51,681 bases of DNA, from the NCBI GenBank assembly GCA_964355365.1, contig CAYHEX010000001.1:1-51681 (forward strand), in the 5' to 3' direction. The notes under the pieces were generated by a model. It searched no databases. It was not told the origin of the DNA and was given only the letters and a program-made list of their open reading frames with translations. Each line of letters starts with the position of its first letter. The stretch's first letter is position 1. Made by a program: the position numbers and the translations under genes. This DNA comes from an uncultured Solibacteraceae bacterium. GTDB taxonomy: Bacteria; Acidobacteriota; Vicinamibacteria; Vicinamibacterales; SCN-69-37. This document shows, one piece after another, positions 20,148-42,052 of this stretch.

Positions 20148-20570
20148 ATGGCGATCCCGAAGTCCATCCGTCTCGAGTTCGTCACGCCCGAGCGGTCGAT
20201 TGCTCATCAGGACGTGGACGAGGTCGAACTGCCGGGCGAGGAAGGCTTCTTCGCCGTCCTGCCCGGCCATGCCCCGTTGCTCGCCGCGCTCAAAACCGGC
20301 CCGGTCTGGTACCGGAGCGGCGGCGAAAAGCACTACGCCTTCATCGGGGGCGGTTTCGCCGAAGTGACGGCGGACCGCGTCAGTGTGCTGGCCTCGGTCG
20401 CCGAACGCGCGGAAGATATTGATATTGCCCGTGCTGAAGCCGCCAAGCGACGTGCGGAAGACCGCCTCGCCAAGCCGGTGACGGACATCGACATGGAACG
20501 CGCCCGCATCGCGATGCTGCGCGCCATTGCCCGCCTCCAACTTGCAAAGGTCAGCCGCACGCGCGGGTGA
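20148..20570 (+). CDS. atpC: F0F1 ATP synthase subunit epsilon
   Basis: 140 aa. ATG abuts the atpD TAG. Beta-sandwich N-terminus (LEFVTPERSI...VELPGEEGFFAVLPGHAPLL) plus a helical C-terminus. Confidence 0.9.
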   Translation: MAIPKSIRLEFVTPERSIAHQDVDEVELPGEEGFFAVLPGHAPLLAALKTGPVWYRSGGEKHYAFIGGGFAEVTADRVSVLASVAERAEDIDIARAEAAKRRAEDRLAKPVTDIDMERARIAMLRAIARLQLAKVSRTRG

Positions 20571-21363: not shown

Positions 21364-22147
21364 CCTCGCGCGACTGTTCCGCTATCGCGGGTTGATTCAG
21401 AGTCTGGTGGCTCGAGAACTGAAAGCCAGATACCGCGGCTCCGTGCTGGGCTTCTTCTGGTCCTTCGTCAACCCCCTCCTGCTCCTGTCGATCTACTCGT
21501 TTGTCTTTACCGTGGTGATGCCCGGACTGCATCCGAAGGAAATCGAGCCGTACGCGCTGTTCATGTTCTGCGGCATCCTGCCGTGGACGTGGTTTTCGTC
21601 CTCGCTGACGGAAGCATCCGCGTCCTTGATTGCCGGCGGCAACCTCATCAAGAAGGTTTTGTTTCCCGCCGAAATCCTGCCGCTCGTCAATGTGCTGGCG
21701 AACATGATTCACTTTTTTCTTGGGCTGCCGATCCTGATCGGGTTCCTGATCTGGTACCAGAAGTCCCCGGACGGACTGGATCTCATCTGGTTTCCGGTCA
21801 CCGTCCTGATCCAGCTCGTCTTCACCGCCGCGCTCGGCCTGGTGCTCTCGGCTCTCACCGTGCACTTTCGTGACCTTCGCGACATTCTCTCGAACGTGTT
21901 GACGCTCTGGTTCTTCGCGACGCCGATCATCTATCCGATGGGCCTGGCGGTCGGTTTGAGCAAGCGCGTGCTCGACATGAACCCGATGACGCACCTGATC
22001 GTGTCGTATCAGGAGATCTTGTTCTACTCCGGCGACATCGGGCACTGGAAGTGGTTGCTGGTGTTTGGCGCGGCCTCCGTCCTGTTCTTCCTCGCCGCCT
22101 ACTGGCTGTTTGACCGTCTGCGCGACTCGTTCGCGGAGGTGGTGTGA
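21353..22147 (+). CDS. ABC-2 type polysaccharide/O-antigen export permease (Wzm/TagG-like)
   Basis: Internal ATG 21353 of ORF 21281..22147 gives MWTNLARLFRYRGLIQSLVARELKARYRGSVLGFFWSFVNPLLLL plus six predicted TMs. It overlaps the PP2C stop (ATGTGGACTAA). Confidence 0.85.
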   Translation: MWTNLARLFRYRGLIQSLVARELKARYRGSVLGFFWSFVNPLLLLSIYSFVFTVVMPGLHPKEIEPYALFMFCGILPWTWFSSSLTEASASLIAGGNLIKKVLFPAEILPLVNVLANMIHFFLGLPILIGFLIWYQKSPDGLDLIWFPVTVLIQLVFTAALGLVLSALTVHFRDLRDILSNVLTLWFFATPIIYPMGLAVGLSKRVLDMNPMTHLIVSYQEILFYSGDIGHWKWLLVFGAASVLFFLAAYWLFDRLRDSFAEVV

Positions 22148-27529: not shown

Positions 27530-28603
27530 ATGAAACCACTGACTGCGTTTTTTGCCGCCTTTGTGCTCGTTGCTTCGGCGCCCGTGTTCACACAGGGCGT
27601 GATCCTCGAGCAGGTGCTCGTAAAGGTGAACGGCGAGATCTTCACCAAGACCGATCTTGAGCAGCGGCAGATTACCGCGTTGAGGGAAGGGAATCGTCAG
27701 GTGAACAGCCCTGGCGACCTCAAGAGTGACGCGACGCTCAAGGCGGCGCTGGCGGAGCTGACCCCCGGCTTGATTGTGGACGCGATCGACGAATTGTTGA
27801 TGGTGCAGCGCGGCAAGGAGCTCGGACTTCAGCCCAATTCGACCCAGTTGAAAGACACCGTTGACCGGATCAAGAAGCAGAACAACATCACCACGGATGC
27901 GCAGTTTCGGACGGCGCTCACGCAGTCCGGCATGTCCTACGAAGAATTCGAGAAGAATCTCGAGAAGGAATACATCAAGGCGCGCGTCCAGCAGCAGGAG
28001 ATCATGACCAAGATCCAGCTGACGGAGGAAGAATCCAAGGAGTACTACCGAACGCACACCAAGGAGTTCGAGAAGCCCGCCTCGATTTCCATTCGCGACA
28101 TCTTCATTGCCGTGCCGACTTCGGTGCAGGGTGGTCAGGTCGTGACCAATGTTGCCGCCGATGACGAAACCGCCAGGAAGATCGCTGATGTTCGCGCGCG
28201 AATCCTGAAGGGCGAGGATTTCACCAAGCTTGTCGCCGAAGTGTCGGAGTCGCCGTCGAAGGCCAACGGCGGGTTGATCGGCCCGATCAACATCTCGGAA
28301 CTGGCTCCGCAAGTGCACGAGTTGCTCGACAAGATGAAGGTCGGTGAAGTTTCGGAACCGATTCACACCCAGACCGGCTATCAATTGATCAAGCTCGAGA
28401 CGCGCACGGCGCCCACGCCGGAGCCGTTCGAGTCGGTACGTGACGACATCGCCAATCGGATTGGCTCGTCGCGGCTCGAAGCGGAGCAGAAGAAGTACAT
28501 CGACCGGTTGCGCGCGCAGGCGATCATCGAGTGGAAGAACGACGAACTCAAGAAGCTGTACGACCAGAAGATGGCCGGCGGCGTGGTCCCGGATCGTCCG
28601 TGA
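27530..28603 (+). CDS. Periplasmic SurA/PrsA-like peptidyl-prolyl isomerase (SurA-N chaperone domain + one parvulin domain)
   Basis: ATG 27530 gives signal peptide MKPLTAFFAAFVLVASAPVFTQG. Parvulin segment ISIRDIFIAV...GGLIGPINISELAPQVHELLDKMKVGEVSEPIHTQTGYQLIKL. Confidence 0.75.
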   Translation: MKPLTAFFAAFVLVASAPVFTQGVILEQVLVKVNGEIFTKTDLEQRQITALREGNRQVNSPGDLKSDATLKAALAELTPGLIVDAIDELLMVQRGKELGLQPNSTQLKDTVDRIKKQNNITTDAQFRTALTQSGMSYEEFEKNLEKEYIKARVQQQEIMTKIQLTEEESKEYYRTHTKEFEKPASISIRDIFIAVPTSVQGGQVVTNVAADDETARKIADVRARILKGEDFTKLVAEVSESPSKANGGLIGPINISELAPQVHELLDKMKVGEVSEPIHTQTGYQLIKLETRTAPTPEPFESVRDDIANRIGSSRLEAEQKKYIDRLRAQAIIEWKNDELKKLYDQKMAGGVVPDRP

Positions 28604-29088
28604 GCCAGTGGTACGCCATCTGGACCCGCTCGCGCCACGAGCAGGTGGTCCGCGAGCAACTCGAGCGCAAGGGGATGGAGGCATTTCTGCCCACCGTCAC
28701 GCGCTGGAGCCGATGGAAGGACCGTAAGAAGCAGGTCGACTGGCCGCTGTTCCCAGGGTATTGCTTCGCGAAATTCGAAATCAACGACCGCCTGGCGGTG
28801 ATGAAGTCGACCGGTGTTGTCAGCATCGTCTCGTTTAGTGGCGAACCATCGCCCATCCCGGAGCATGAGATCAGCAGCATTCGCACGCTGATCGATACCG
28901 ATCTGCAGTTCGACCCATGTCCAATGATCAAGGAGGGCATGATGGTGGAAGTGACGCACGGCCCGTTGCGCGGCGTTGTGGGCCGGCTGGTCCGTAAGGG
29001 CGCACACGCCAGGCTGGTGCTGTCGGTGGCATTGATCGGGCAAGGTGTTTCTGTGGAAGTGGACGCGGCGGACGTCAAACCGTACTGA
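28600..29088 (+). CDS. NusG-family paralog (UpxY/RfaH-like specialised transcription antiterminator)
   Basis: GTG 28600 overlaps the SurA-like TGA (GTGA). NGN domain WYAIWTRSRHEQVVREQLERKGMEAFLPTV...LFPGYCFAKF. KOW EGMMVEVTHGPLRGVVGRLV. Only 162 aa and not next to secE/rplK, so it is not the housekeeping nusG. Confidence 0.8.
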   Translation: MSQWYAIWTRSRHEQVVREQLERKGMEAFLPTVTRWSRWKDRKKQVDWPLFPGYCFAKFEINDRLAVMKSTGVVSIVSFSGEPSPIPEHEISSIRTLIDTDLQFDPCPMIKEGMMVEVTHGPLRGVVGRLVRKGAHARLVLSVALIGQGVSVEVDAADVKPY

Positions 29089-29090: not shown

Positions 29091-30173
29091 ATGAAGATCG
29101 GATCAATCACCCTCGAGCATCCGGTCGCGCTGGCGCCCATGGCCGGCATGACGGATACCGCGTTTCGCCGATTGGTGAAGCGCCGAGGCGGGTGCGGACT
29201 TGTGGTCACGGAGATGGTCAGTTCTGAGGGACTGGTCCGTGGCATCGATCGCACGCTCGAGTACGCGGAGTACACCGAGGAAGAGCGTCCGGTGTCGATT
29301 CAGATCTTCGGCGGCGACCCCGAGAAGATGGCGGACGCGGCGCAGATCGTTGAGGGCATGGGGGCCGATGTTGTTGACATCAACATGGGCTGCCCGGTGC
29401 CGAAGATTGCGAAGCACAACGCTGGCTGCAGCTTGATGCGCGAACCCGCGCACGCCGCCGCCGTGGTGCGTGCGATGGCGAAGGCCGTCAAGATCCCTGT
29501 CACCGTGAAGATGCGCGCAGGCTGGAATGAGCGCGAGATCAATGCGCCGGAGTTGGCGCGCATGGTGGAAGATGCCGGCGCCGCGGCCATCGCGGTACAC
29601 GGTCGAACGGCGGCCCAGTCGTATTCCGGCGAATCAGACTGGGACTTGATTGCCCGCATTGCCGCGAGCATCAAAATCCCGGTGTTTGGGTCCGGCGACT
29701 GTGTGGAGCCGGGGCAGGTCATCTCGCGACTCGAACATAGCGCTGTGGGCGGCGTGCTTGTTGGTCGGGGCGCGCTACGGAATCCGTGGATTTTCCGTCA
29801 GGCCGCTGAGATGGCATCCGGCCGGACTCCCGAGCCCGTCACACTGGAAGAGCGCGGCCGGTTCTTGCTCGACTACATGGATTTGCTGATCACTGAGCGC
29901 GTCGATGAAGCGAGTGGATTTCGCCATTTGGCGCCAGGGCAGGGCGATGAAGTCCCGAAGGCGCGCGGTCGTGAGAAGTGGGTCATCAACAAGCTTCGGG
30001 CGTTGAATTCCTGGTACACGAAGGGATTGACCGGTGGATCTCAGCTGAGGGTGTCCATCAACTCAGCTGAGTCCATCGATCAACTGCGATCAATAATTGT
30101 TGATTTTTTTGTCATTAACCCAAAAACAGTCAACATCGACGATCATCGTGCGCTCGCAGTGCTGCCAGAATAG
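29091..30173 (+). CDS. dusB: tRNA-dihydrouridine synthase (DusB-like)
   Basis: 360 aa. LAPMAGMTDTAFRRL, DINMGCPVPK (catalytic Cys), VKMRAGW and AIAVHGRT. Confidence 0.88.
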   Translation: MKIGSITLEHPVALAPMAGMTDTAFRRLVKRRGGCGLVVTEMVSSEGLVRGIDRTLEYAEYTEEERPVSIQIFGGDPEKMADAAQIVEGMGADVVDINMGCPVPKIAKHNAGCSLMREPAHAAAVVRAMAKAVKIPVTVKMRAGWNEREINAPELARMVEDAGAAAIAVHGRTAAQSYSGESDWDLIARIAASIKIPVFGSGDCVEPGQVISRLEHSAVGGVLVGRGALRNPWIFRQAAEMASGRTPEPVTLEERGRFLLDYMDLLITERVDEASGFRHLAPGQGDEVPKARGREKWVINKLRALNSWYTKGLTGGSQLRVSINSAESIDQLRSIIVDFFVINPKTVNIDDHRALAVLPE

Positions 30174-30437
30174 CTGCCCGACCTTGACGTGCAGCGGATG
30201 GTCCAAATAGACCTTGAGGCCATCGATGTCATCGAATTCAACCACAGAAGCATACGAATAGGCTGTATCACCAATTCTGGCTTCGTATGAGATTCCTATC
30301 TTCTGCCTCAAGCCAATAAATGACCGCCTGACGGTATCGATGTCGCTGAAAGTTACCCGCAGTAACTCGATGAAAGCGTCCCTCTCGGACATGGTGGTGC
30401 TGCTCTTGGGCTCAAAGAGCACGACATGCGCGATCAT
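30090..30437 (-). CDS. Dabb (stress-responsive alpha/beta-barrel) family protein
   Basis: 115 aa. IAHVVLFEPK...YSYASVVEFDDIDGLKVYLDHPLHVKVGQLF is typical of Dabb. ATGA overlap with the upstream repeat-protein gene. Visibly low GC. The 3' end overlaps the dusB 3' end by 84 nt. Confidence 0.8.
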   Translation of the reverse strand: MIAHVVLFEPKSSTTMSERDAFIELLRVTFSDIDTVRRSFIGLRQKIGISYEARIGDTAYSYASVVEFDDIDGLKVYLDHPLHVKVGQLFWQHCERTMIVDVDCFWVNDKKINNY

Positions 30438-31531
30438 TCCTTTGGCCTCCTCGGTCCTTTCGCAGCACCCATAGTGCCAAACGGCTTACGGGCACCAAAT
30501 GGCTTGCCGGCGCCGAACGGTTTTCGTGCGCCAAACGGCTTGCTGGCTCCGAACGGCTTGCGCTCCCCAGCGGGCGGGCCTTCCCGGCGCGGTCCGTCAA
30601 AGGGTTTGCGGTCTTCAAACGGCTTTTTGGCCGCAAACGGCTTCTTGTCGCCCCACGGCTTCCGTTCGCCAAACGCCTTCTTCTCTGCCCACGGCTTGCG
30701 TTCACCGGCTGGCGGGCCTTCACGCCTCGGGCCATCGAACGGCTTTCGATCGCCAAACGGCTTCTTGGCCGCAAACGGCTTCTTGTCGCCCCACGGCTTC
30801 CGCTCGCCGAACGTCTTCTTGTCCGCCCACGGTTTCCGCTCGCCGGCCGGTGGGCCTTCCCGCCGGGGACCGTCCGCATCGAACTTCTTCGGACCGGCCC
30901 AGGGCTTCTTCTCGCCGTACGGCTTGCGCTCGCCGAATGCCTTCTTCTCGCCGTAGGGCTTTCGGTCACCGAACGGCTTCTTGTCACCAAACGGCGCTTT
31001 GGCCTCGTACGGTTTCCTCTCGCTGAACGGCTTTCGCTCCGTATTGAACGCACGCTTCTCGCTGAACGGCTTCCGTTCACCGAACGGCTTCTGTTCTGCG
31101 TAGGACTTCCGCTCTGCAAACGGCTTCCGCTCGCGAAATGGTGGCTGTTCCGGGCGCGGTGCGCTTGACTCTTCCGGCGGTTTGGTCGTGCCGGCCTCAT
31201 CGGCGCGGCTGTTCATCACGAGCCGCTCCTTAAAACGTGCGCGGCGCACATCGCGGGTAATTTGGTACTTCGCGCGCGGATCCTTGTGATCGCCGCCCGG
31301 CCGCCAGTCCTTCTTGCGTTCCTTGCGGAACCCGTCCCGCTCGCGACCCCGCGCATCCGCCTGGTCCTGCGTTTCAAAGAACCGCGTGCCGTCGAACCAG
31401 CGGATGACGGCATCCGGCTGCTTGCGCTGCAACTGCTTCAGCGTCGGCGTCAGCGTTTCCTGATCGCGCGCGCGAAACGACGTCGGCACGTTGCCGACCA
31501 CAATCACCCAGTACATTCCTGCTCGGGCCAT
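30434..31531 (-). CDS. Hypothetical protein: ~115-aa N-terminal globular region + ~235-aa highly basic tandem-repeat tail of (D/E)(R/K)KP(F/W/Y)(G/A) units
   Basis: 365-aa ORF with AGGAAG SD ~10 nt upstream of the ATG. About 35 hexapeptide units (ERKPFG, DKKPFG, ERKPWG...). A 46-aa super-repeat GPRREGPPAGERKPW... starts at aa 221, 267 and 313. I recognise no family for the N-terminal part. Confidence 0.7.
   Translation of the reverse strand: MARAGMYWVIVVGNVPTSFRARDQETLTPTLKQLQRKQPDAVIRWFDGTRFFETQDQADARGRERDGFRKERKKDWRPGGDHKDPRAKYQITRDVRRARFKERLVMNSRADEAGTTKPPEESSAPRPEQPPFRERKPFAERKSYAEQKPFGERKPFSEKRAFNTERKPFSERKPYEAKAPFGDKKPFGDRKPYGEKKAFGERKPYGEKKPWAGPKKFDADGPRREGPPAGERKPWADKKTFGERKPWGDKKPFAAKKPFGDRKPFDGPRREGPPAGERKPWAEKKAFGERKPWGDKKPFAAKKPFEDRKPFDGPRREGPPAGERKPFGASKPFGARKPFGAGKPFGARKPFGTMGAAKGPRRPKE
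30554..30871 (-). repeat. 138-bp higher-order tandem repeat (2 full copies + partial third) inside the repeat-protein CDS
   Basis: aa 221-266 and 267-312 are near-identical (GPRREGPPAGERKPWA[D/E]KK[T/A]FGERKPWGDKKPFAAKKPF[G/E]DRKPFD). A third copy starts at aa 313. The DNA copies differ at scattered positions. Confidence 0.85.
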
Positions 31532-31545
31532 GTCAGTTCTGCTTC

Positions 31546-32964
31546 CTAGCGCTGTTCAAGGCGCTTCAACTTCTCAATCAATGTCGTGCGTTTGAGCCCG
31601 AGCAATTCGGCGGCTTGCCGTTTGTTGCCTTTCGTTCTTACGAGGGCCTGGCGGATGCGGCTGTGTTCGTACCGCGATACTTCGTCGTCGAGATTGGTAC
31701 CGGCCTCGGGCAATTCCAGATCGTCGGCCGGACGGGGCGCCTGCGCGCGCTGCACTTCGTCCGGCAGGTCGCTCGCCTCGATCTGCGCGCGGCCGGGTGA
31801 GAGCGAAAATGCGCGCTCGATCACGTTCTCGAGGTGGCGAACATTACCCGGCCAATCGAACGCCATCAGCGCCTGTTGCGCTTCTTGGGACAGCGTCACG
31901 CGACCCCGTGCCGGGACTGACTGTTTTGCCAACTGGTCCAGAAAGTACTGCGCGAGGAGCGGGATGTCCGCGCGCCGCTCGCGCAACGATGGCAGCCGGA
32001 TCGGAATCACATTCAGCCGATAGAACAGGTCTTCGCGAAATGTGCCGGCTTCGACCATCTTTTTCAGATCAGAGTTCGTGGCGGCCACCACGCGCACATC
32101 CACGCGAATGGTCTGCGAATCCCCGACGCGTTCAAATTCTCTCGACTGCAACACCCGCAACAATTTCGCCTGCAATGCCGGGCTCATCGTCCCGATTTCG
32201 TCGAGGAACAGCGTGCCCCGATGCGCCTGCTCCAATCGGCCCTGACGATTTGCGATCGCGCCCGTGAACGCGCCCCGCACATGTCCGAATAATTCCGCCT
32301 CGAGCAGGGTTTCGGGAATCGCGCTGCAGTTGATGGCGACAAACTTCTGCGCACGACGCGGACTGGCGTCATGCAGCCCACGCGCGGCGAGCTCTTTGCC
32401 TGTGCCGGTGTCACCCGTGATCAACACGGTGCTGGTCGTGACGGCCACCGTGTCGAGCAATTCGAACAGCTTCATCATCACCGGCGTGCGGCCAATCATG
32501 CCGTCGATGCTGTAGCGATCGCGCAGCTGCGCGCGCAGGTAGGCATTTTCCGCGCGCAGTTTGCGTCGTTCGATCGCCGTGCTCAATTCGTGTCGGAGCT
32601 CTTCGAATTGAAACGGTTTCGTGATGAAACCTTCCGCGCCCTGTCGTGTGACTTCGACCGCCTCGCGGACCGTGCCGAACCCGGTGATGACGATCGCGAT
32701 GATGTCGGGGTATCGCGCCAGCGCTTCGTCCAACAACTGCCGGCCGTCGACGCCCGGCAGGCGCAGGTCAGTGATCAAGATGTCGAAGGCGAATTCCGCC
32801 AGACGTTCCAGCGCCAGTTCTCCGGTGCCGGCCTGTTCGACCGTGAACCCCTGTTCCGCGAGTTGCTCGGCGATGGCCGTGCGGAACCCCTCCTCGTCAT
32901 CGACCAGGAGCAGGTGGGTGGGGTTGTCCGGGGCGATCATCAGGATGACGACATTTTGACACAC
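31546..32964 (-). CDS. Sigma-54-dependent response regulator (NtrC family: REC + AAA+ + Fis-type HTH)
   Basis: REC LLLVDDEEG...DILITDLRLPGVDG. AAA+ GDTGTGKE, GAFTGA (sigma-54 contact loop), LFLDEIG. C-terminal RQAAELLGLKRTTLIEKLKR. Start is GTG 32964 or ATG 32940. Confidence 0.92.
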   Translation of the reverse strand: MCQNVVILMIAPDNPTHLLLVDDEEGFRTAIAEQLAEQGFTVEQAGTGELALERLAEFAFDILITDLRLPGVDGRQLLDEALARYPDIIAIVITGFGTVREAVEVTRQGAEGFITKPFQFEELRHELSTAIERRKLRAENAYLRAQLRDRYSIDGMIGRTPVMMKLFELLDTVAVTTSTVLITGDTGTGKELAARGLHDASPRRAQKFVAINCSAIPETLLEAELFGHVRGAFTGAIANRQGRLEQAHRGTLFLDEIGTMSPALQAKLLRVLQSREFERVGDSQTIRVDVRVVAATNSDLKKMVEAGTFREDLFYRLNVIPIRLPSLRERRADIPLLAQYFLDQLAKQSVPARGRVTLSQEAQQALMAFDWPGNVRHLENVIERAFSLSPGRAQIEASDLPDEVQRAQAPRPADDLELPEAGTNLDDEVSRYEHSRIRQALVRTKGNKRQAAELLGLKRTTLIEKLKRLEQR

Positions 32965-33014
32965 CGCGATGGTCTATAGCTGTTTCACGCGCGGGCCGAT
33001 AGTTCCAATCGAAT

Positions 33015-33233
33015 ATGAACACCGTCGAGCGTCAAACAGTTTCCATCCCCCGCGCATGTGAGTTGGTCAGCGTGAGCCGCCGCACCATCTACAACTGGAT
33101 GGCCAGCGGAAAGGTCCATTACGTCAGGACCGCCGGTGGCTCCGTGCGGATCTTTGCCGACACGCTGTGGCGAGGGCCCGAACCGGCGTCGGCCGACACC
33201 TGGATCGAAGAACCGCTGCGCCGGGGCGCGTAG
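33015..33233 (+). CDS. Small excisionase/MerR-superfamily HTH (HTH_17-like) DNA-binding protein
   Basis: 72 aa. VSIPRACELVSVSRRTIYNWMASGKVHYVRTAGGSVRIFADTL is the typical excisionase-family HTH. No obvious SD. Confidence 0.7.
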   Translation: MNTVERQTVSIPRACELVSVSRRTIYNWMASGKVHYVRTAGGSVRIFADTLWRGPEPASADTWIEEPLRRGA

Positions 33234-33437
33234 GTGACGGAGCCAGAACTCAGCAAGCTGTTCCATCAACTGAACAACCAACTGGGCGTCATTCTCGCTA
33301 ACGCCGAGTTGCTGGAACAGCGGTTGGCTGATCCAAATCACAAGTCCCGCGCCGGTCAGGTTGTCGCGGGGGCCCTTGACGCCATCAGCACGGCGAAGCG
33401 GATCAAGCACTTGACGAGTGCCTTGGACACGCCATAG
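33234..33437 (+). CDS. Stand-alone histidine-kinase DHp (HisKA H-box) mini-protein, 67 aa, no ATPase domain
   Basis: GTG directly abuts the TAG of the HTH ORF, in the same frame. LFHQLNNQLGVILANAELLEQRL + loop + AGQVVAGALDAISTAKRIKHLTSAL forms a two-helix hairpin. Its H-box resembles that of the neighbouring kinase (VAHELNNPLATVLACAERL). Confidence 0.5.
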   Translation: MTEPELSKLFHQLNNQLGVILANAELLEQRLADPNHKSRAGQVVAGALDAISTAKRIKHLTSALDTP

Positions 33438-33621
33438 CTCCCGTCAGGACCATGACTCTTCGATCAATAAACAGCCAATAATTTGACGGCCATTGCCACT
33501 TCAGCACGCCATTTCACACCGCTGCACAGGCCGACAATATTCGTCTAAACCATTGTACCAATTGGCCTTACTGACAAATTCTCCTCAAGTCTGATTTTCG
33601 CTATATTTTCGCATATCCGGA

Positions 33622-33636
33622 TGGCACTGCCATTGC
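33622..33636 (+). promoter_or_regulatory. Sigma-54 (-24/-12) promoter
   Basis: TGGCACtgccaTTGC matches TGGCAC-N5-TTGC with correct GG/GC spacing. It lies 51 nt upstream of ATG 33687 (GGAGG SD at 33676-33680) and 0.66 kb from a GAFTGA-containing EBP gene. Confidence 0.7.
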
Positions 33637-33686
33637 GGAAGGGAAGGGCATGGGGCCTCTTCCCGGGGCCTTCTTGGAGGTTCAGA

Positions 33687-34496
33687 ATGCAAATCGCCCC
33701 ACTCGCCGCCCATCAGCAAGACCGCGTCATTGCCAGTCTTCCCTTTGTGGAGTCGCTGGCACGCCGCATGGCGTCGACGATGCCCCACTCGATCAGTTTG
33801 GGGGACCTGGTTCAGGACGGCGTGCTGGGCCTCATGGACGCGGCGCACCGGTTCGATGAAGGCCGCGGCATCAAGTTCGAGACATTCGCAGAGCGTCGCG
33901 TGCGCGGCGCCATGATCGATGCGCTGCGTCGGGACGCGTGGCCGCGTGGCGTCCGTCGCGTGCGCCGCGAACTCGAGGCGGCTCGCGAGCAACTGCGACG
34001 CGAACTGGGTGCGGAGCCCACGCTGGCCGACCTGGCCGCGCGCGTCGGCACGGACCCGGCTCGTCTCGAGCGCACCATCGTGCGCATCAACACGATCGAG
34101 TCCACATCGGCCCTCGCAAATCTCGACACGATCGACGCGGCCACTCTCCCGGCTGTGCTCGTTCCGAGCGAGCCGATGGCGCCGGACGTCAGCTATCAGC
34201 AGGTCGAGGTGCGCGAGAAGATCCGCGCGGCCATGCGCGCCATTCCTTCCCGCGAGCGCAAGATCATCTCGATGTACTACTTCAACGACGCCACCATGAA
34301 GGAGATTGGCGACGCGATCGGGGTGAATGAGTCTCGCGTGTCGCAGTTGCACGCGCGGGCGATCGGCCGTCTGAAGATTGCGCTCGGCGTGTCCGTTGAC
34401 GCGTTCCTTACGCCCGCGCCCGAGAAGAAATCGAAGGCGGCAAAGCCGGCTACCCGACTGTCTCTCGTGCGACGCGGACGAGATCTCGCAGCCTGA
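33687..34496 (+). CDS. FliA/WhiG-type (sigma-28 group) RNA polymerase sigma factor
   Basis: Start chosen at ATG 33687 (good SD; the upstream track start would swallow the promoter). Region 2 LGDLVQDGVLGLMDAAHRFDEGRGIKFETFAERRVRGAMIDALR. Region 4 RERKIISMYYFNDATMKEIGDAIGVNESRVSQLHARAIGRLK. Confidence 0.85.
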   Translation: MQIAPLAAHQQDRVIASLPFVESLARRMASTMPHSISLGDLVQDGVLGLMDAAHRFDEGRGIKFETFAERRVRGAMIDALRRDAWPRGVRRVRRELEAAREQLRRELGAEPTLADLAARVGTDPARLERTIVRINTIESTSALANLDTIDAATLPAVLVPSEPMAPDVSYQQVEVREKIRAAMRAIPSRERKIISMYYFNDATMKEIGDAIGVNESRVSQLHARAIGRLKIALGVSVDAFLTPAPEKKSKAAKPATRLSLVRRGRDLAA

Positions 34497-35991
34497 ACGG
34501 TTTTGCCAGCCAGCGGCAGCCGGATTCCTCGAGGAATCGCTCCGCGTCCGTTCCCGCCACGTCTCCCGTCACAAACACCATGCGCTTGCTCAGCGCCGTG
34601 TGTGTGACGGCGAGTTGTCTGTAGAGAGACGGACCGTCGAGTCTGGGCATCTTCAGATCGCAGATCACCAGGTCGTACGTCTGACGCGCGATCCAGGCGA
34701 GGGCTTCCTCGCCGTTTGCGGCGCGATCCACCACAAATCCGGCGTCACCGAGCGCGTCGGCGACGGCCTGGCCGAGCGCCGCTTCATCTTCGACCACCAG
34801 TGCGCGAGTTCCTGTCGGCACTTCGGGCGCCGGGCGTACTGCGGCCGGCACGCTCATCCGCAGCGGTGACCCACCGACCGGCAACTCCAGCGTGAAGGAC
34901 GCACCGCGTCCACCGCTCGACGCGACGCTCAAACTGCCGCCGTGCTCCTGGGCGATTGCATACGCGACGGTGAGGCCCAACCCGGTACCTTTTCCAACTT
35001 CCTTGGTTGTAAAAAACGGGTCGAAGATCTTCGCCTGCACATCCGGCGGCACGCCGGGGCCGTCGTCGCTGACCTCCAGCTTGACGGCATCATGCTCGGC
35101 GTCGTGCCACGATCGCAGGATCAGCGTGCCGCGACCGTGGGCGCCCAGCATGGCCTGTTCGGCGTTGATGATCAGGTTGAGCAGCACCTGTTGAATCTGA
35201 TGCGGATCGGCAAACACCAGTGGCAGACCGGACGCCAGCGCTTCAAGAATCACGACGTTGGCCACGCGTTGTTCGTACGCGCGCAGCGCGAGCGTGTCAC
35301 GGACCACGTGGTTGAGGTCCACCATTGTGCGCGTGGTGTGCCGTTTGCGCGCGAAGGTCTGGAGGTTTCGGACGATGCGCGCCGCGCGTTCAGCGGCGTT
35401 GTGGATGGCGTCCAGATCGCGTCGCGTCGTGTCGTCGAGCGGTTTGCCCGTCAGCCGTTCGGCGCAGGCGAGTACGGTTGCGAGCGGGTTATTCAGTTCG
35501 TGCGCGACGCCGCTCATGGTCTGACCGAGCGACGCGAGCTTCTCGGCCTGCAACAGTTGGTGATAGAGATCGCGCGCCTGGTCCTCGAGCTTCTTCCGCT
35601 CCGTGACGTCGCGCATCACGGCTTCAACTCGCAGCGCGGTGTCTGACGGGATCACCTCGGCGCGCGCCGTCACTTCGACCCACATCGCGGATCGGTCAGC
35701 TCGACGGAGGCGAAGCAGGTAGTCTCTGGCGTTGCCATCGCGCGTCAACTGCTGAACGAACGATGCCCGCGCCTGCTCGTCCACGAAGTGGGCCGGATCG
35801 AACGGTCGCACGTCCTCGAACGGCACGTCATCGGCCCAGCCAAACATCAAACGCAGATGCGGATTGGCGGCCAGGGTGGTGGTGGGGACGGACGCGTCGC
35901 TGATCAGACCGATGTACACGCCTTCATGAACGGCTTCGAACAGCCGCGCGAACGCGTCGCTCGGCAGTGAGGCGTTTCGCGCAGGCGCCAC
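34450..35991 (-). CDS. Cytoplasmic hybrid sensor histidine kinase (PAS + HisKA + HATPase_c + REC)
   Basis: 513 aa, GTG start 9 nt after the upstream stop, no TM segment. H-box GVAHELNNPLATV. N/G boxes LLNLIINAEQA, DDGPGV, GTGLGL. C-terminal REC ALVVEDE...LVICDLKMPRLDG...KPF. Confidence 0.9.
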   Translation of the reverse strand: MAPARNASLPSDAFARLFEAVHEGVYIGLISDASVPTTTLAANPHLRLMFGWADDVPFEDVRPFDPAHFVDEQARASFVQQLTRDGNARDYLLRLRRADRSAMWVEVTARAEVIPSDTALRVEAVMRDVTERKKLEDQARDLYHQLLQAEKLASLGQTMSGVAHELNNPLATVLACAERLTGKPLDDTTRRDLDAIHNAAERAARIVRNLQTFARKRHTTRTMVDLNHVVRDTLALRAYEQRVANVVILEALASGLPLVFADPHQIQQVLLNLIINAEQAMLGAHGRGTLILRSWHDAEHDAVKLEVSDDGPGVPPDVQAKIFDPFFTTKEVGKGTGLGLTVAYAIAQEHGGSLSVASSGGRGASFTLELPVGGSPLRMSVPAAVRPAPEVPTGTRALVVEDEAALGQAVADALGDAGFVVDRAANGEEALAWIARQTYDLVICDLKMPRLDGPSLYRQLAVTHTALSKRMVFVTGDVAGTDAERFLEESGCRWLAKPFRLRDLVRVARETVG

Positions 35992-36000
35992 TGTGGCTTT

Positions 36001-36549
36001 CTAGTCCTGCGATCCGCCGCTGCGTGGCGCAGGCGGTGTGGGCGTGTGCCCTTCGTACAGATTCGCGTACTTCTTCTCGATCACCTGCCGGATCTGGGCC
36101 ACGCTGGCCCCCGCGTTGTGCATCTGCATGGTTTCGGTCGCCACGTCGAGACAGATCTCACAGCCGATCCCATGATTGTCCCAGGTCACCGATGTGCCGC
36201 GACGACCCGCGATGAAACACGACTCGTTGCTCGTATGACCACCTCGTTCACAACCGCAGAAGCAGGGCATGTAACTGATGACTTCCGGGTGTCTGGCGGC
36301 GAATTCGTATGCGGCCTTGACGACGGACATCGGTCGCGGCGCTGACGGCGCGCCGGCCGGCAGGAGCGGAAGATCGTCGGCGATGAACAGGGGGTTCTCG
36401 CGTCCGGTGCCGGGCGTCGCCCGAGTGGCCGACATGGTGGCGCCCGGTGCGGTCGCGTCTGGCGGCGTCGCGTTCTTTGAACACGAGGCCACCGTCAGCA
36501 CGGCAAGGATCGCCAAACACAGTCGTGAGCGCATGCGAAATCTTAGCAT
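36001..36549 (-). CDS. PCYCGC-motif lipoprotein (putative metal-binding)
   Basis: Internal ATG (36549, or 36534) gives MLRFRMRSRLCLAILAVLTVASC (lipobox VASC). Contains MPCFCGCERGGH plus a later GCEIC. The longer track ORF (to 36705) would overlap the divergent SDR gene. Confidence 0.72.
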   Translation of the reverse strand: MLRFRMRSRLCLAILAVLTVASCSKNATPPDATAPGATMSATRATPGTGRENPLFIADDLPLLPAGAPSAPRPMSVVKAAYEFAARHPEVISYMPCFCGCERGGHTSNESCFIAGRRGTSVTWDNHGIGCEICLDVATETMQMHNAGASVAQIRQVIEKKYANLYEGHTPTPPAPRSGGSQD

Positions 36550-36570
36550 CTGGCGATACACTGAAAGTTC

Positions 36571-37368
36571 ATGTTCACAGCGGATTTGCTTGCCGGACAG
36601 ACGGCCATCATCACGGGAGGCGGCACCGGGCTCGGGTTGGCGATGGCTCAGCGCTTTGCGTCGCTCGGCGCGAATGTCGTGCTTGCGAGTAGCACGCAGG
36701 CGCATCTCGATGACGGCGCGGCGGCGATCGTGGCGAATGTTCCGGATGCCGGCGTGCTGACGGTGGCGACGGACGTCCGCAGACCTGAGGACGTGGATCG
36801 CATGGTCGCCGCCGCGGTCTCGCGGTTTGGCCGGGTGGATATCCTGATCAACAACGCGGCCGGGAATTTTGTGTGCAAGGCTGAGGACTTGTCACCGAAC
36901 GGTTGGAGTTCGGTGATCAACATCGTGCTCAACGGCAGCTTCTATTGCTCGCGTGCCGTCGGGCGGCACATGATCGCGTCCGGGCACGGTGGGTCGATCG
37001 TGTCCATTTTAGCCAACTACGTGTGGACCGGCAGTGCGGGCACGATTCATTCAGCGGCCGCGAAGGCCGGGGTGATGTCGATGACGCAAACGCTGGCGGT
37101 GGAGTGGGCGCGCCACAAGATCCGGGTCAACGCCGTTGCGCCCGGTCCAATTGAATCTCCAGGGGCGGCGAAACAGCTTTGGGCATCGGAGGCCGATGTG
37201 GCGCGTATTACAGACATGGTGCCGTTGAAACGGTGGGGACAGCCGAGCGAAGTGGCTGACGCGGTCACGTTTCTCGTGTCGCCGCTGTCTGCGTACATCA
37301 CCGGCGATGTGCTGACGGTTGACGGCGCCGCATGGCTTGGGCGCGGCACATTCGGGTTCGTGTCGTAA
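36571..37368 (+). CDS. SDR-family oxidoreductase (2,4-dienoyl-CoA reductase-like)
   Basis: 265 aa. ITGGGTGLG, NNAAGNF, active-site region HSAAAKAGV and RVNAVAPGPI. Confidence 0.85.
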   Translation: MFTADLLAGQTAIITGGGTGLGLAMAQRFASLGANVVLASSTQAHLDDGAAAIVANVPDAGVLTVATDVRRPEDVDRMVAAAVSRFGRVDILINNAAGNFVCKAEDLSPNGWSSVINIVLNGSFYCSRAVGRHMIASGHGGSIVSILANYVWTGSAGTIHSAAAKAGVMSMTQTLAVEWARHKIRVNAVAPGPIESPGAAKQLWASEADVARITDMVPLKRWGQPSEVADAVTFLVSPLSAYITGDVLTVDGAAWLGRGTFGFVS

Positions 37369-38333
37369 TGGCGATCTTTCGTCTTCCTCCCATCGCGGAA
37401 ATCGACGGCGCGGCTTCGGGCTGGGGTTTCTTTCTCTGTGCACAAAAGGACCTGCGTCCGACAAAGAACGGCGGCAGTTACCTGTCGCTGATGCTGCAGG
37501 ATGCCACCGGAGAAATTGCCGGGAAGGTGTTCGACGGCGCCGAGTCGCTCAACGGCCAGTTCAACAAGGGCGATTTCGTCAAGGTTCAGGCGCGCGGCAA
37601 TGTCTTCAAAGGTCAGACGGAACTCGTGGTCGAGAATCTTCGCCGGGTGAATCCGGCCAAGGATGCCGCGGACGGGTTTCGCGAGGAAGACTGCATTCGC
37701 AGTTCGCCACGTCCACTGGCCGAGATGTGGCAGGAACTGCACGACCGTGTCGCGGAGGTGCAGCGTCCGGAATTGCGTGCGCTCCTCGAGCGGATCATCG
37801 CGAAGCACGGCGATCGTCTGCGGATCTGGCCCGCAGCCGTCACGGTACATCACGCCTATCGCGGTGGACTCCTGGAGCACCTGCTCAAGATCATGGAAGT
37901 CGGCACATTTCTGGCCGGCGCTTACGGCGTCGATCGCGACATGATCATCGCCGGCGCGGTCCTGCACGATCTGGGCAAGACCGAAGAACTGACGTACGAA
38001 GGCGCGACCGGCTACTCTGTTGCGGGTAACCTCATCGGCCACATCGCGATCGGTCTGGGGATGTTGCGCGATGCGATTCGCGAAGATCCGTCATTTCCGG
38101 ACGACCTTCGCATGGCGCTCGAGCACATCGTGCTCTCGCACCATGGCGCCCGCGAGAACGGCTCTCCGGTGTTGCCGCTGACGCTCGAGGCCTTCATCTT
38201 CGCGACCGCTGATGATCTGGACGCGAAGATGTTTCAGTTCCGGAAGCACATTGCCGATGACGACGGCGATGGGGCGTTCACGCAGTACAGCAAGCGGCTC
38301 GACCGCATGTTGTTCAAGCCACCGCCGGCGTAA
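37368..38333 (+). CDS. OB-fold + HD-domain phosphohydrolase (YhaM-like 3'-5' exoribonuclease family)
   Basis: ATG 37368 overlaps the SDR TAA (TAATG). OB fold GSYLSLMLQDATGEIAGKVFD. HD domain HHAYRGGLLEH and GAVLHDLGK. Confidence 0.8.
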   Translation: MAIFRLPPIAEIDGAASGWGFFLCAQKDLRPTKNGGSYLSLMLQDATGEIAGKVFDGAESLNGQFNKGDFVKVQARGNVFKGQTELVVENLRRVNPAKDAADGFREEDCIRSSPRPLAEMWQELHDRVAEVQRPELRALLERIIAKHGDRLRIWPAAVTVHHAYRGGLLEHLLKIMEVGTFLAGAYGVDRDMIIAGAVLHDLGKTEELTYEGATGYSVAGNLIGHIAIGLGMLRDAIREDPSFPDDLRMALEHIVLSHHGARENGSPVLPLTLEAFIFATADDLDAKMFQFRKHIADDDGDGAFTQYSKRLDRMLFKPPPA

Positions 38334-39870: not shown

Positions 39871-40347
39871 CGCGAACGTCATCGTCCCGTGGCAGACGAC
39901 CTTGCCATTTACCCGTGCGCGGCCGCTCAGCACGCCCATGCGGCTGCGCAGCCGCCGCACAATGGCTTCAATCTCGACGACATCGCCGGGGTGTACGGGC
40001 CGGTGAAAGCGCACACGCTCGATGCCCATGAAGTAGATGAGCTTCTCGCGATTCTCCGGCTTCGACAGGATCAGGATCGCGCCCACTTGCGCGACCGCCT
40101 CGGTGAGAATGGTCGGCGGCAGCGACGGCGGCTCGCCAGCGGTGCGTGCCAGGAACCGCTCATTCAACGAGATATTCTTGATTCCCACGATGCGCTTGTC
40201 GGGTTCGAGTTCGGTCACGCGATCGACAAGGAGGAACGGATATCGGTGGGGCAAAATCCGTTCGATGGCTGTGTAGTCCAGCGGCAAGGTCAGCACGCTC
40301 CAAGTATAGTTAAAGGTAATGAGTGAACGGGACATTCTCCTGACCAT
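39838..40347 (-). CDS. fabZ: 3-hydroxyacyl-[ACP] dehydratase FabZ
   Basis: LPHRYPFLLVDRV, ...MGIERVRFHRPVHPGD... hot-dog fold. Start uncertain: 40347, 40335, or GTG 40296, which gives the usual N-terminal length. Confidence 0.88.
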   Translation of the reverse strand: MVRRMSRSLITFNYTWSVLTLPLDYTAIERILPHRYPFLLVDRVTELEPDKRIVGIKNISLNERFLARTAGEPPSLPPTILTEAVAQVGAILILSKPENREKLIYFMGIERVRFHRPVHPGDVVEIEAIVRRLRSRMGVLSGRARVNGKVVCHGTMTFALGERPAGEES

Positions 40348-42052
40348 GTTCGATTTGGGGCGTCAGGTGACCGCGGTGCTGGACGTCAACGAGCTGCTGC
40401 AGAAGACCCCAGAACTGATCCGCCGGTTGATTCCGTTTGACGCGTTCGCGGTCTATCTGCTGGATGCCAAACGTAACGAACTGTCCATTGCCTACGCCGT
40501 TGGGTATCCCGACGACCGGTCCTTCCGTGTACGTGTCTCTGAAGGCATCGTGGGGCGGGTCGTGGAATCCCAGCAGGGTCTGGTGATCGGCGACGTCTCG
40601 GCGGATCCGCACTACATTGCGGTCGTGCCGGGCATGGCATCGACGCTGGCCGTGCCGCTCATCCACAAGAAGAAGTCTCTCGGTGCGCTGAATGTTCTGA
40701 GCCGGACGCAGGATCAGTACACCGATCAGGACGCCGCCATTCTCCGTCAGTTCGCCGCGCACGTGGCTGTGGCGCTGGCGAATGCGCGGTTGTTCGAACG
40801 TGAACGGGCGGACGCGGATGCGTTCGAAATGCTCGCCGAGATCGGCAAGGAAGTGGCCGCGGTTCTGGATCTCGACCAACTGTTGTCGAACATCGCGCAG
40901 CTCACACGGCGCGTGGTGGACTACCGCACGTTTGGCATCCTGCTCTACGACGAACCACGACAGGAACTTGAAATGAAGGTCGCCGTGCAATACGGCGAGA
41001 AATTCGAAATTCCCACCGTCCGGCTGGGTGAAGGCATCGTGGGCTACGCGGCGTTGCATCGGGAAGCTGTGCTCGTGCCGGACGTCTCGAAGGATCCGCG
41101 CTACATCAAGGCCGTGGATGACGTGCGGTCTGAGCTGGCCGTGCCGATGTTGCTGAAAGATCGCTGCATCGGCGTGTTCGATTTGGAGAGTCCGGAACTC
41201 GACGCCTTCTCAAAGCGCGACGTGGAAATTCTCACGCTGCTCGCCAGTCAGGCGGCGGTGGCCATCGAGAATGCGCGACTCTACGAAGCCGTGTCGGCGT
41301 CGGAAGCGCGCATGGAGAAGGAACTGCACTTCGCCAAACGCGTGCAGGCCGCCTTGCTGCCGGCGCAACTGCCCAAGAAGCTCAAGGGCGTCGACATCTC
41401 GGCGTCGTTTGCGTCGGCGCGCGAACTGGGTGGTGACTTCTACGACTTCCTCGTGCCTGATTCCAACACGTTGATCGTGGCGCTCGGCGACGTGTCGGGC
41501 AAAGGCGTGCCCGCCGCGCTGTACAGCGTATTTGCCGGCGAGTTGGTGCGCGGCCGCACGTTCCGCCGCCGCTTCATGCCGGAACAGTCCACGCCGAAAG
41601 CCGTACTCGAATCGATCAACTCGATCCTGCACGAGCGGCAGCTCGAGGAGTACTACTGCACGTTGTGTTATGTGGTGTTTGATCTGAAGCGTCGGACCGT
41701 GACGCTGTCGAACTCCGGCGTGCCGTACCCGATTCGTGCCACGGCCGACGGCGTGGCGCAGATCGAGTCACCCGGCGTTCCGCTCGGGTCGTTCTACGGG
41801 ACAACCTATGACGAAATCGTGCTTCCTCTTGGGCACGACGAGGTGTTTGTGTTCTGTTCGGACGGGGCGTCGGAAGCCATGAACATGAAGAGCGAGGAAT
41901 TTACGAGCCCGGGCATCATCAAGGTCGTGGAGGCCTCGCGATCGCTGCCCGCGCGGGAAATCATGCACAACATCATCAATGCCGTCGAGGATCATCGCGC
42001 CGGCGCCCCGCCCAACGACGACATGACGGTGGTTGTTGTGCGATTCAGTTAG
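40319..42052 (+). CDS. GAF-GAF-PP2C (SpoIIE/RsbU-type) protein phosphatase
   Basis: 577 aa. Two GAF domains (...VGYPDDRSFRVRVSEGIVGRV...; ...GEGIVGYAALHRE...). SpoIIE domain ARELGGDFYDF, ALGDVSGKGVPAAL and PNDDMTVVVV. Confidence 0.88.
   Translation: MSERDILLTMFDLGRQVTAVLDVNELLQKTPELIRRLIPFDAFAVYLLDAKRNELSIAYAVGYPDDRSFRVRVSEGIVGRVVESQQGLVIGDVSADPHYIAVVPGMASTLAVPLIHKKKSLGALNVLSRTQDQYTDQDAAILRQFAAHVAVALANARLFERERADADAFEMLAEIGKEVAAVLDLDQLLSNIAQLTRRVVDYRTFGILLYDEPRQELEMKVAVQYGEKFEIPTVRLGEGIVGYAALHREAVLVPDVSKDPRYIKAVDDVRSELAVPMLLKDRCIGVFDLESPELDAFSKRDVEILTLLASQAAVAIENARLYEAVSASEARMEKELHFAKRVQAALLPAQLPKKLKGVDISASFASARELGGDFYDFLVPDSNTLIVALGDVSGKGVPAALYSVFAGELVRGRTFRRRFMPEQSTPKAVLESINSILHERQLEEYYCTLCYVVFDLKRRTVTLSNSGVPYPIRATADGVAQIESPGVPLGSFYGTTYDEIVLPLGHDEVFVFCSDGASEAMNMKSEEFTSPGIIKVVEASRSLPAREIMHNIINAVEDHRAGAPPNDDMTVVVVRFS

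Follow-up and report, generated by a model that had tools for sequence, protein, structure and literature searches.

A conserved sigma-54 and sigma-28-type regulatory cassette encoding a candidate DHp-only protein in Vicinamibacterales-type Acidobacteriota

The DHp hairpin is the chemical heart of the histidine kinase, and fragments cut out around it keep phosphotransfer and phosphatase activity in vitro. DHp-derived phosphotransferases with an extra domain are known, namely Spo0B and ChpT. The activation of a sigma-28-family gene by a sigma-54 enhancer-binding response regulator (EBP) is also a known design, described in flagellar hierarchies. Here we analyze a window of 51,681 nucleotides (the whole stretch of DNA studied) from the oriC-proximal core genome of a Vicinamibacterales (Acidobacteriota) bacterium. 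A 6.5-kb stretch of the window carries eight genes, as judged from the listing of open reading frames (ORFs), Pfam, and NCBIfam. One of them encodes a 67-amino-acid protein, hereafter the mini protein, which is predicted to consist of a DHp-like hairpin and nothing else.

The conserved core of this stretch comprises four genes, encoding an EBP (− strand), the mini protein (+), a FliA/WhiG-like sigma factor (+), and a hybrid histidine kinase (−). A sequence-only reading of the window had proposed a regulatory island of six elements here, all of which were found where it had placed them by ORF listing, Pfam, and NCBIfam. The predicted transcriptional wiring of the cassette is well supported by the conserved gene set, two conserved promoters, and conserved palindromes. 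The resulting circuit is legible from end to end: kinase, EBP, sigma-54 promoter, sigma factor, sigma-28-type promoter, and a feedback protein. Its hosts, the Vicinamibacteria, are abundant in soil, and very little is known of how they regulate their genes. The mini-protein family has many members, shows strong conservation, and keeps to a single genomic context. A natural family of DHp-only proteins appears to be undescribed, and a literature search for DHp-only proteins and for sigma-factor or two-component regulation in Vicinamibacteria returned nothing relevant.

Gene set and promoters of the cassette

We scanned one genome per species and found relatives of the mini protein in 260 species, from which 80 species loci were retained. 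These are Vicinamibacterales or unclassified Acidobacteriota by label, with the exception of a few evident mislabels. Gene presence was assessed by tblastn with the window proteins, and the denominators given here are the loci long enough to judge. The four-gene core was detected in essentially all of the 80 loci and in four more divergent loci with other flanks. The EBP gene was present in 73/73 loci, the sigma gene in 78/78, and the kinase gene in 75/77, where both misses were fragmented matches. A check of synteny in relatives had been named beforehand, and the core gene set was not lost in it, the divergent loci included. A gene for a small helix-turn-helix (HTH) protein was found in 71 of 76 loci and was missing in one clade of five. 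Three further genes were recounted with hidden Markov models (HMMs): a repeat-protein gene (58/68 by tblastn, 57/68 by HMM), a PCYCGC lipoprotein gene (41/74 by both), and a Dabb gene (37/66 and 38/66). By this distribution, these three are accessory.

The core was intact beside several different left flanks. Locus L001 carries a glycoside hydrolase and aminotransferases there, the marine locus L087 a NUDIX gene, L091 O-antigen-type glycosyltransferases, and L092 PA14 and lipase genes. An intact core beside changed flanks is stronger evidence for a unit than gene order among syntenic loci. On this pattern of conservation, we regard the cassette as a lineage-specific, core-genome regulatory unit of Vicinamibacterales-type Acidobacteriota.

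We then counted promoter and binding-site motifs on both strands of the 80 species loci (1.13 Mb). The positions of the features in the window are summarized in Table 1. The sequence-only reading had noted a consensus sigma-54 promoter ahead of a FliA/WhiG-type gene, and this was borne out both by the exact match in the window and by its conservation. The motif TGG[CT]A-N6-TTGC stands ahead of the sigma gene throughout, with a single locus deviating at −12 (TTGA), and 76 of the 77 strict matches in the 80 loci fall ahead of the sigma gene. In the window, the promoter lies 50 nt upstream of the sigma ATG at 33687, which is preceded by a GGAGG ribosome-binding site at 33676-33680. An alternative ORF of 291 amino acids starting at 33621 is spurious, because its start overlaps the promoter. 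The sigma factor scored 187.5 bits against TIGR02479 (cutoff 189.6), by far its best-matching family.

The region upstream of the sigma gene contains, in order, two palindromes, three direct repeats, an AT-rich TAA...TTA segment, a T-rich tract, and the −24/−12 elements. The palindromes are spaced 31 bp centre to centre, lie 140-175 bp upstream of the sigma-54 promoter, and form conserved columns in an alignment of 27 sigma-gene upstream regions. Matches to the palindrome motif number 357 in the 80 loci, and 210 of them, spread over 71/80 loci, lie 100-400 nt past the start of the mini gene. The palindromes also occur in the divergent loci L087 and L091-L093. Judged from the sequence, these palindromes with the −24/−12 elements have the usual anatomy of an EBP-dependent promoter. 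The motif G[TC]CA-N6-TGAC also has matches 400-600 nt ahead of where the mini gene starts. At the mnmG/rsmG junction (12085-12098) stands a perfect palindrome, GTCAATATTTTGAC, with the same sequence as the best consensus for the upstream sites; it is probably a chance occurrence, because no sigma-54 promoter lies nearby. Strict matches to the direct repeats fall between the palindromes and the sigma-54 promoter in 40 of 44 cases. The repeats are a candidate site for the HTH protein, which probably binds them, or for another factor; the assignment to the HTH protein is the weakest link of the model.

The second promoter precedes the HTH gene and the mini gene. The motif TA[ACT]AG-N14-16-CCGATA precedes HTH/mini in 76/82 loci, and the others carry near-variants of it; a typical example reads TAAAGTC-N13-GCCGATAG. 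It agrees with the sigma-28/FliA/WhiG consensus TAAA-N15-GCCGATAA within one base of spacing. The motif has a single match in the window on both strands (expectation 0.015), and all 70 strict matches in the 80 loci occupy the HTH/mini upstream position. Both the sigma-54 promoter and the −10 element CCGATA are retained in the divergent loci L087 and L091-L093. In the one clade without an HTH gene, the sigma-28-type promoter stands directly upstream of the mini gene, approximately 105 nt ahead of it. From its adjacency and co-conservation, we infer that the neighbouring FliA/WhiG-like sigma factor reads this promoter.

Since the sigma-28-type promoter precedes the HTH-mini operon, the mini protein would be an output of the cascade, and the loop would be closed. 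The sequence-only reading had wired the DHp protein upstream in the cascade. The link from sigma-54 to the sigma factor stands, and the mini protein is more than a relay step upstream, since it would itself be made by the cascade.

The HTH protein, of the HTH_17/excisionase type, passes TIGR01764 (32.5 bits; cutoff 28.8) and is not a member of the BldC family (NF033787, 24.5 bits; cutoff 77). The mini gene begins, with a GTG, right after the HTH stop codon, so that the small HTH protein expected ahead of the 67-amino-acid gene was found directly adjoining it. On the short contig L089 (3-1576), which belongs to a divergent subfamily, a HicB/nucleotidyltransferase gene stands in place of the sigma gene behind the HTH-mini pair, which hints that the pair may also occur outside the cassette. 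On another short contig, L086, a NusG paralogue (736-1230) directly follows a divergent mini gene. Both contigs are too short to interpret as other contexts.

Flagellar, chemotaxis, and sporulation septation genes were found neither in the 51.7-kb window nor in any locus examined. The cassette is thus a case of a FliA/WhiG-type sigma factor without flagellar genes nearby. An Rfam scan of 29500-37500 gave no match at E up to 0.1, and scans for terminators and sigma-70 promoters gave matches at chance level.

Table 1 Positions of the cassette features in the window.
Feature	Position	Strand	Evidence or description
Dabb (stress-responsive alpha/beta barrel) protein	30090-30437	−	PF07876, E 1.7e-14; last gene of the EBP operon
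Repeat protein, 365 aa	30434-31531	−	Orphan
NtrC-family sigma-54 EBP	31546-32940	−	Pfam, NCBIfam
ATTTTGACAC element in the EBP/HTH divergent region	32947-32961		Conserved across many loci
Sigma-28 (FliA/WhiG)-type promoter	32975-33002	+	TATAG (−35-like), spacer, GCCGATAG (−10)
HTH_17/excisionase-type winged-helix protein, 72 aa	33015-33233	+	PF12728, E 1.2e-7
Mini protein, 67 aa	33234-33437	+	Motif FHxLNNQLGxILANAELLE, near-invariant His11
Two palindromes GTCA-N6-TGAC	33443-33456, 33474-33487		Candidate EBP upstream activating sequences
Three direct repeats GCAC(A/G)/TCACA, 10-11 bp period	33504-33528	+	Conserved alignment columns
Sigma-54 promoter TGGCACTGCCATTGC	33622-33636	+	−24 TGGCAC, −12 TTGC; sole exact match within the window
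FliA/WhiG-like alternative sigma factor, 269 aa	33687-34496	+	Sigma70 r2, r3, r4 (Pfam)
Soluble hybrid histidine kinase	34450-35991	−	Pfam HisKA 2.8e-13, HATPase_c 8e-25, REC 4e-20
PCYCGC-motif lipoprotein	36001-36555	−	PF13798, E 1e-25; lipobox VASC

The mini protein and its candidate partners

The first search for the mini protein returned 285 relatives of 59-108 amino acids. HMMER gave 345 clusters at 50% identity, the best 150 of which are 55-182 amino acids long, and a profile of the divergent members gave at least 8000 clusters at 90% identity, with the best 120 at 63-96 amino acids. Members listed in these searches range from 55 to 182 amino acids (median 81), and what lengthens some of them is just a low-complexity tail or an extension from gene calling. 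The diversity at codon positions 1, 2, and 3 is 0.25, 0.15, and 0.55, a pattern by which the mini gene is protein-coding. The mini protein had no Pfam or NCBIfam match above threshold, and the family is without annotation.

Several comparisons relate the mini protein to the neighbouring kinase. HisKA was the top sub-threshold Pfam match, in register, for 29 of 40 members (best E 0.004). BLASTP aligned mini His11 to kinase His164 in the H-box VAHELNN (E 2e-4), and hhalign of the mini alignment against the kinase DHp alignment (77 orthologues and the window's own kinase) placed His on His at 94.7% probability (E 6e-8). The AlphaFold2 model is a two-helix hairpin (residues 3-30 and 38-64) with a mean predicted local distance difference test (pLDDT) score of 84.5. 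We regard homology of helix 1 to the kinase H-box as supported, but not strong. The sequence-only reading had described a DHp-only hairpin with an intact histidine: the predicted hairpin, the histidine, and the helix-1 homology hold, whereas support from a curated model at threshold does not.

The histidine is kept in 368 of 369 members. These 369 are the members with the strict motif, whose search pattern itself required Asn-Asn at H+3/H+4; among 18 members outside it, a few swap one Asn for Thr, Ser, or Gly. At H+1, 365/369 members have R, Q, K, T, or A and 2/369 have Glu, indicating loss of the kinase-competent acid, and at H+5 Gln replaces the kinase Pro in 356/369. The surface residues N14, N15, N23, and E25 near the histidine are invariant. 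In kinases, an acidic residue beside the histidine is needed for kinase activity only, and Thr or Asn at H+4 is needed for phosphatase activity; this division between the H+1 acid and H+4 T/N was reportedly set out by Willett and Kirby in 2012. The sequence features (His and H+4 Asn kept, H+1 Glu and H+5 Pro lost) would fit a phosphoryl shuttle and a phosphatase equally. The histidine itself reportedly is dispensable for the latter activity, since NtrB and EnvZ mutants lacking it are said to keep phosphatase activity. Its near-absolute conservation therefore points to a phospho-His intermediate.

Other families of small proteins were compared. The mini protein is not an HPt protein: PF01627 gave no match in 40 members at E up to 10, and the motif is HxLNNQ rather than HxxKG. 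Neither FlgM nor Spo0E was among the Pfam matches of these 40 members at the same limit. At 67 amino acids, it has no degenerate catalytic-like alpha/beta domain of the Spo0B/ChpT type. Two apparent HTH-mini fusion proteins, P0140 and P0174, were considered as Rosetta-stone evidence and rejected, as the P0140 contig contains many truncated genes and a frameshift artefact is likely.

The hybrid kinase has HisKA and HATPase_c domains and a C-terminal receiver with a phospho-acceptor Asp, as is characteristic of its class. Its H-box H-E-L-N-N-P is invariant in 78/78 orthologues, and receiver residues Asp445, Thr475, and Lys497 are kept in 76-77 of 77. The best NCBIfam matches, EspC and CckA, were both far below their cutoffs. 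The protein had been described as a soluble PAS-HK-REC kinase behind a PCYCGC gene. Its kinase domains, receiver, position, and solubility agree with this (its N-terminal region shows no hydrophobic segment), and the PAS assignment is weak, with a PAS_9 match at E 3.6e-4, below the Pfam cutoff. Kinase residues 473-499 form a near-invariant block, FVTGDVAGT...EESGCRWLAKPF, which spans beta4-alpha4-beta5 of the receiver. This conservation is unusually strong, and the same face varies in CckA-type intermediary receivers. We considered the FATGUY class (PMC9981736) for this receiver, but its motif, FVTGD, is resembling and not identical, and no clear assignment was made. The sigma and kinase genes are convergent, and their 3′ ends overlap by 47 bp (34450-34496), as they do in loci L004 and L005.

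The EBP contains REC, Sigma54_activat (E 2.2e-71, with GAFTGA), and HTH_8 domains, in agreement with the sigma-54 EBP response regulator of the sequence-only reading. An AAA+ domain with GAFTGA behind a receiver, a Fis-type HTH, and a −24/−12 target promoter with upstream sites place it in the NtrC family. We consider it an unnamed subfamily, because no equivalog model reaches its cutoff. Of its 62 orthologues, 57-62 keep Asp58, Thr86, and Lys108. The likely start is the ATG at 32940, judged by comparing the regions upstream of the orthologues.

A short element, ATTTTGACAC, lies between the divergent EBP and HTH genes. It also corresponds to one half of the GTCA-N6-TGAC palindrome, and TGTCAAAAT stands a few bases ahead of the EBP ATG. 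The element may be a third EBP-type half-palindrome, an extended −10 (TGTCAAAAT) of the EBP operon on the − strand, or both. Its position suggests EBP autoregulation or near-leaderless transcripts on both sides.

Proposed circuit and alternative explanations

We propose the following circuit. The hybrid kinase and the NtrC-type EBP would form a two-component pair. Phosphorylated EBP would bind the two palindromes and, with sigma-54 RNA polymerase, activate the promoter that drives the FliA/WhiG-like sigma factor, which in turn would transcribe the HTH-mini operon from the sigma-28-type promoter. The mini hairpin would dimerize into a four-helix bundle, and its histidine would pass phosphoryl groups to and from two receivers, that of the kinase itself and that of the EBP. 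The mini protein would thus be a ChpT/Spo0B-like shuttle without a catalytic domain, running in either direction according to the kinase or phosphatase state of the hybrid kinase, and the output of the cascade would feed back on its own input. The HTH protein would bind the three direct repeats. Both receivers have complete active sites, consistent with a shuttle.

The full mechanism, the phosphoryl shuttle included, is the reading we favour, at somewhat less than an even chance. The pairing of the kinase with the EBP is the sole link drawn purely from adjacency, and we infer the assignment of binders to sites, dimerization, phosphorylation of His11, and the sign of the feedback. That a natural free-standing DHp dimer is a true histidine phosphotransferase made by the sigma factor at the end of its own pathway is a tentative proposal, which we would sooner doubt than assert. 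If it is true, the mini protein would represent a third structural class beside monomeric HPt proteins and the DHp-plus-pseudo-catalytic proteins Spo0B and ChpT. The relay would then build its own connector, giving a self-reinforcing or a reversible, self-draining sigma-54 to sigma-28-type switch, and this switch would control a non-flagellar programme in a highly abundant lineage of soil bacteria. The function of the mini protein is directly testable, because both candidate partners are encoded next door.

Several points weigh against the shuttle and the circuit around it. HisKA (PF00512) scored 16.1 bits against the mini protein of the window, with a gathering score of 26.9, and the hhalign match covers 31 columns, in helix 1 only. 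A sequence-profile search of the PDB with the mini alignment returned no kinase (best matches F-BAR and a GAF helix, E 0.4-1). Foldseek of the hairpin model returned generic helical hairpins, with HK853 at rank 47 (E 2.9), and the fold therefore cannot decide DHp identity. Dimerization, phosphorylation, and receiver binding of the mini protein are predicted from sequence and a single-chain model. Covariation of the mini protein or the kinase DHp with the two receivers was uninformative, because the interface positions are invariant. As the mini gene needs the sigma factor and the sigma gene needs the EBP, an obligatory forward relay would require basal expression. A shuttle is also not required in principle, since hybrid kinases can phosphorylate a separate regulator directly; the argument that a hybrid kinase must use an Hpt step, made in the sequence-only reading, is not strictly true. 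That reading had also noted the lack of an Hpt domain at the locus, and indeed none was found by domain annotation among the called genes of nine annotated loci, a search that covered the loci and not whole genomes. The sigma factor next door, rather than another FliA-type sigma factor, is assigned to the sigma-28-type promoter by adjacency and co-conservation. Gene order alone is weak evidence within Vicinamibacterales, because the housekeeping flanks are almost equally syntenic (Dus in 55/59 loci, FabZ in 58/65).

In the best-surviving alternative, the mini protein exerts negative feedback and at no point bears phosphate, acting either as a DHp phosphatase on the phosphorylated EBP or as a DHp mimic that blocks the kinase. 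Isolated DHp fragments of EnvZ or NtrB and Spo0E-type hairpins are phosphatases, and RetS forms mixed bundles with GacS, a precedent for a mimic that blocks autophosphorylation. As an output of the cascade, the mini gene would have the classic layout of negative feedback, as with the sigma-28-dependent flgM. Such a circuit would start without basal expression and thus fits the circuit logic better than the shuttle. Retention of the phosphatase-critical H+4 Asn with loss of the kinase-critical H+1 Glu suits the phosphatase variant, and mixed bundles would be consistent with the helix-1 core positions, which match those of the kinase next door. The outcome would then be a pulse or a set-point, not a switch, since the sigma factor that is indirectly shut off also induces the mini protein. 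However, the nearly invariant histidine would be dispensable for a phosphatase and irrelevant to a pure dimerization mimic, four surface residues around it, and not the core alone, are invariant, and Pfam gave no Spo0E or FlgM signal. On balance, we consider negative feedback somewhat unlikely. Should the shuttle fail, a DHp-only phosphatase or kinase mimic induced by a sigma factor would nonetheless represent a new type of two-component accessory protein.

A further alternative is that the mini protein is an anti-sigma factor (FlgM- or RsiG-like), or a dimerization or co-factor subunit of the HTH_17 protein, and that its H-box likeness is a relic of its origin. In favour, the mini gene immediately precedes the sigma gene and, like flgM, has a sigma-28-type promoter, and a helical hairpin is also the form of RsiG-type anti-sigma factors. 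Even at E 10, though, Pfam gave no match to FlgM or to other anti-sigma families. The abutting HTH stop and mini start codons, the co-occurrence of the two genes in 71/76 loci, and their pairing in L089, a short contig where no sigma gene follows, would suit a co-factor. Nevertheless, one clade keeps the mini gene, promoter, sigma gene, EBP, and kinase without the HTH gene, and the apparent HTH-mini fusions come from a contig full of broken genes. Both variants leave the invariant His and Asn-Asn of the H-box unexplained, and we regard them as improbable.

Finally, a merely frozen oriC-proximal gene order, with kinase, EBP, sigma factor, and mini protein in separate pathways, would agree with the near-equal synteny of the unrelated Mfd, SurA, Dus, FabZ, and GAF-SpoIIE and with the presence of gyrB, dnaN, dnaA, yidC, mnmEG, and parAB, typical of conserved core regions, in the window, but two conserved promoters physically link three units and the cassette is intact where the left flank is replaced, which makes this explanation very improbable.

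Neighbouring genes and comparison with described systems

Behind the EBP gene, the repeat-protein gene follows after 14 nt and is overlapped by the Dabb gene by 4 nt. A giant basic repeat protein and a Dabb protein had been predicted there; the gene adjacency was confirmed, and at 365 amino acids the repeat protein is not giant. Its N-terminal domain of approximately 100 amino acids is conserved, with an invariant WRPGGxHxDP, and its tail consists of basic hexapeptide repeats (K-P-F/Y/W-G-D/E-R/K) of variable length. At the DNA level, the tail (30476-31137) contains 18-bp units and a 138-bp higher-order repeat at 82% match. We found 108 homologues, all hypothetical and 100-214 amino acids long; across species, the length of the protein differs greatly, between 100 and 394 amino acids. 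The protein had no match in Pfam, NCBIfam, or the PDB sequence search, and its AlphaFold2 model (pLDDT 79.5) had no Foldseek match. Dabb closes the EBP operon in the divergent loci L091-L093 as well, where other genes such as DUF218 may intervene. The Dabb and dus genes are convergent, with 3′ ends overlapping by 84 bp (30090-30173). Such convergent overlaps, here and between the sigma and kinase genes, could permit antisense or transcriptional interference. The PCYCGC gene lies upstream of the kinase gene in the same direction, as it does in about half of the loci.

The rest of the window carries gyrB, dnaN, dnaA, yidC, mnmE, mnmG, rsmG, parA, parB, mfd, surA, and dus. In the origin region (521-14536), gyrB, dnaN, and dnaA on the − strand are followed by yidC, mnmE, mnmG, rsmG, parA, and parB. 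The cassette is approximately 28 kb from dnaA, and its flanks are therefore so syntenic. The ORFs at 15045-20147 are taken to be an ATP synthase operon by their sizes and order alone. A gene for an UpxY-family NusG paralogue (117 bits; cutoff 100) is located between surA and dus at 28603-29088. A Wzm/Wzt-type ABC transporter pair for polysaccharide export (21281-23487) lies upstream of mfd, and in the divergent locus L091, O-antigen-type glycosyltransferases and Wzy adjoin the cassette. The window contains three PP2C/SpoIIE-type phosphatase genes (20527-21363, 40319-42052, and 49546-50568). In most loci, divergent ones among them, a GAF-GAF-SpoIIE gene is conserved on the right-hand side of the cassette at a distance of 6-7 kb, and its product may be a partner-switching regulator.

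Among described systems, the CckA-ChpT-CtrA/CpdR relay of Caulobacter (background in PMC9981736 and PMC3433190) likewise has a hybrid kinase that ends in a receiver and lacks an HPt domain. Its connector, ChpT, is a DHp-derived dimeric His phosphotransferase in which flow is reversible according to the state of the hybrid kinase; dimer and transfer are what we propose for the mini protein. CckA is also among the best NCBIfam matches of the cassette kinase, far below the cutoff. In contrast, ChpT is approximately 225 amino acids long with a degenerate catalytic-like domain, whereas the mini protein is a bare 67-amino-acid hairpin. The terminal regulator is of the OmpR type in Caulobacter and a sigma-54 EBP here, and the receiver motif is FATGUY in the CckA type and FVTGD here. 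Unlike chpT, the mini gene would be transcribed by a sigma factor that the pathway itself induces.

In the Spo0F-Spo0B-Spo0A relay of Bacillus, a DHp-like four-helix-bundle His phosphotransferase stands between two receivers, as proposed for this cassette. Relay genes there are transcribed by sigma-H, whose level depends on the relay output, a precedent for positive feedback. However, Spo0B has an extra alpha/beta domain, the kinases are not hybrid, no sigma-54 step is involved, and spo0B itself is not a sigma-dependent gene of this kind.

Domain A of EnvZ has the same size and predicted fold as the mini protein and shows that a bare DHp hairpin can work. This fragment of 67 residues is reportedly a stable dimer, in work attributed to Park (1998), Tomomori (1999), and Zhu (2000). 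It is said to accept phosphate in vitro, to transfer it to OmpR, and to dephosphorylate phosphorylated OmpR. Domain A is a laboratory fragment of a kinase, with the H-box H-E-L-R-T-P, whereas the mini family is natural, reads H-[RQK]-L-N-N-Q, and has no catalytic domain in the polypeptide.

In flagellar hierarchies, including those with FlrA in Vibrio and FleQ in Pseudomonas and Legionella, an EBP and sigma-54 activate a sigma-28-family gene, and the sigma factor reads promoters of the TAAA-N15-GCCGATAA type, similar to the motif upstream of the HTH-mini operon. Unlike in these hierarchies, the HTH-mini operon is the only conserved local target here. Cultured Vicinamibacteraceae are reportedly non-motile.

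In developmental regulation by CtcB-CtcC/sigma-54 and sigma-28 (PMC10597470), Chlamydia, a non-flagellate bacterium, employs a two-component sigma-54 activator together with a sigma-28-family factor for a non-motility programme. Chlamydia belongs to another phylum, its gene layout differs, and a DHp-only protein is not known from that system. In both organisms, sigma-54 and sigma-28-type regulation would serve something other than flagella. To our knowledge, no direct sigma-54 promoter on the sigma-28 gene has been described in Chlamydia.

The HTH protein resembles BldC and lambda Xis, which are DNA-binding proteins of approximately 70 amino acids that consist of a winged helix only. On DNA, such proteins line up head to tail along direct repeats, and the three direct repeats ahead of the sigma-54 promoter are a candidate for the same mode of binding in this cassette.

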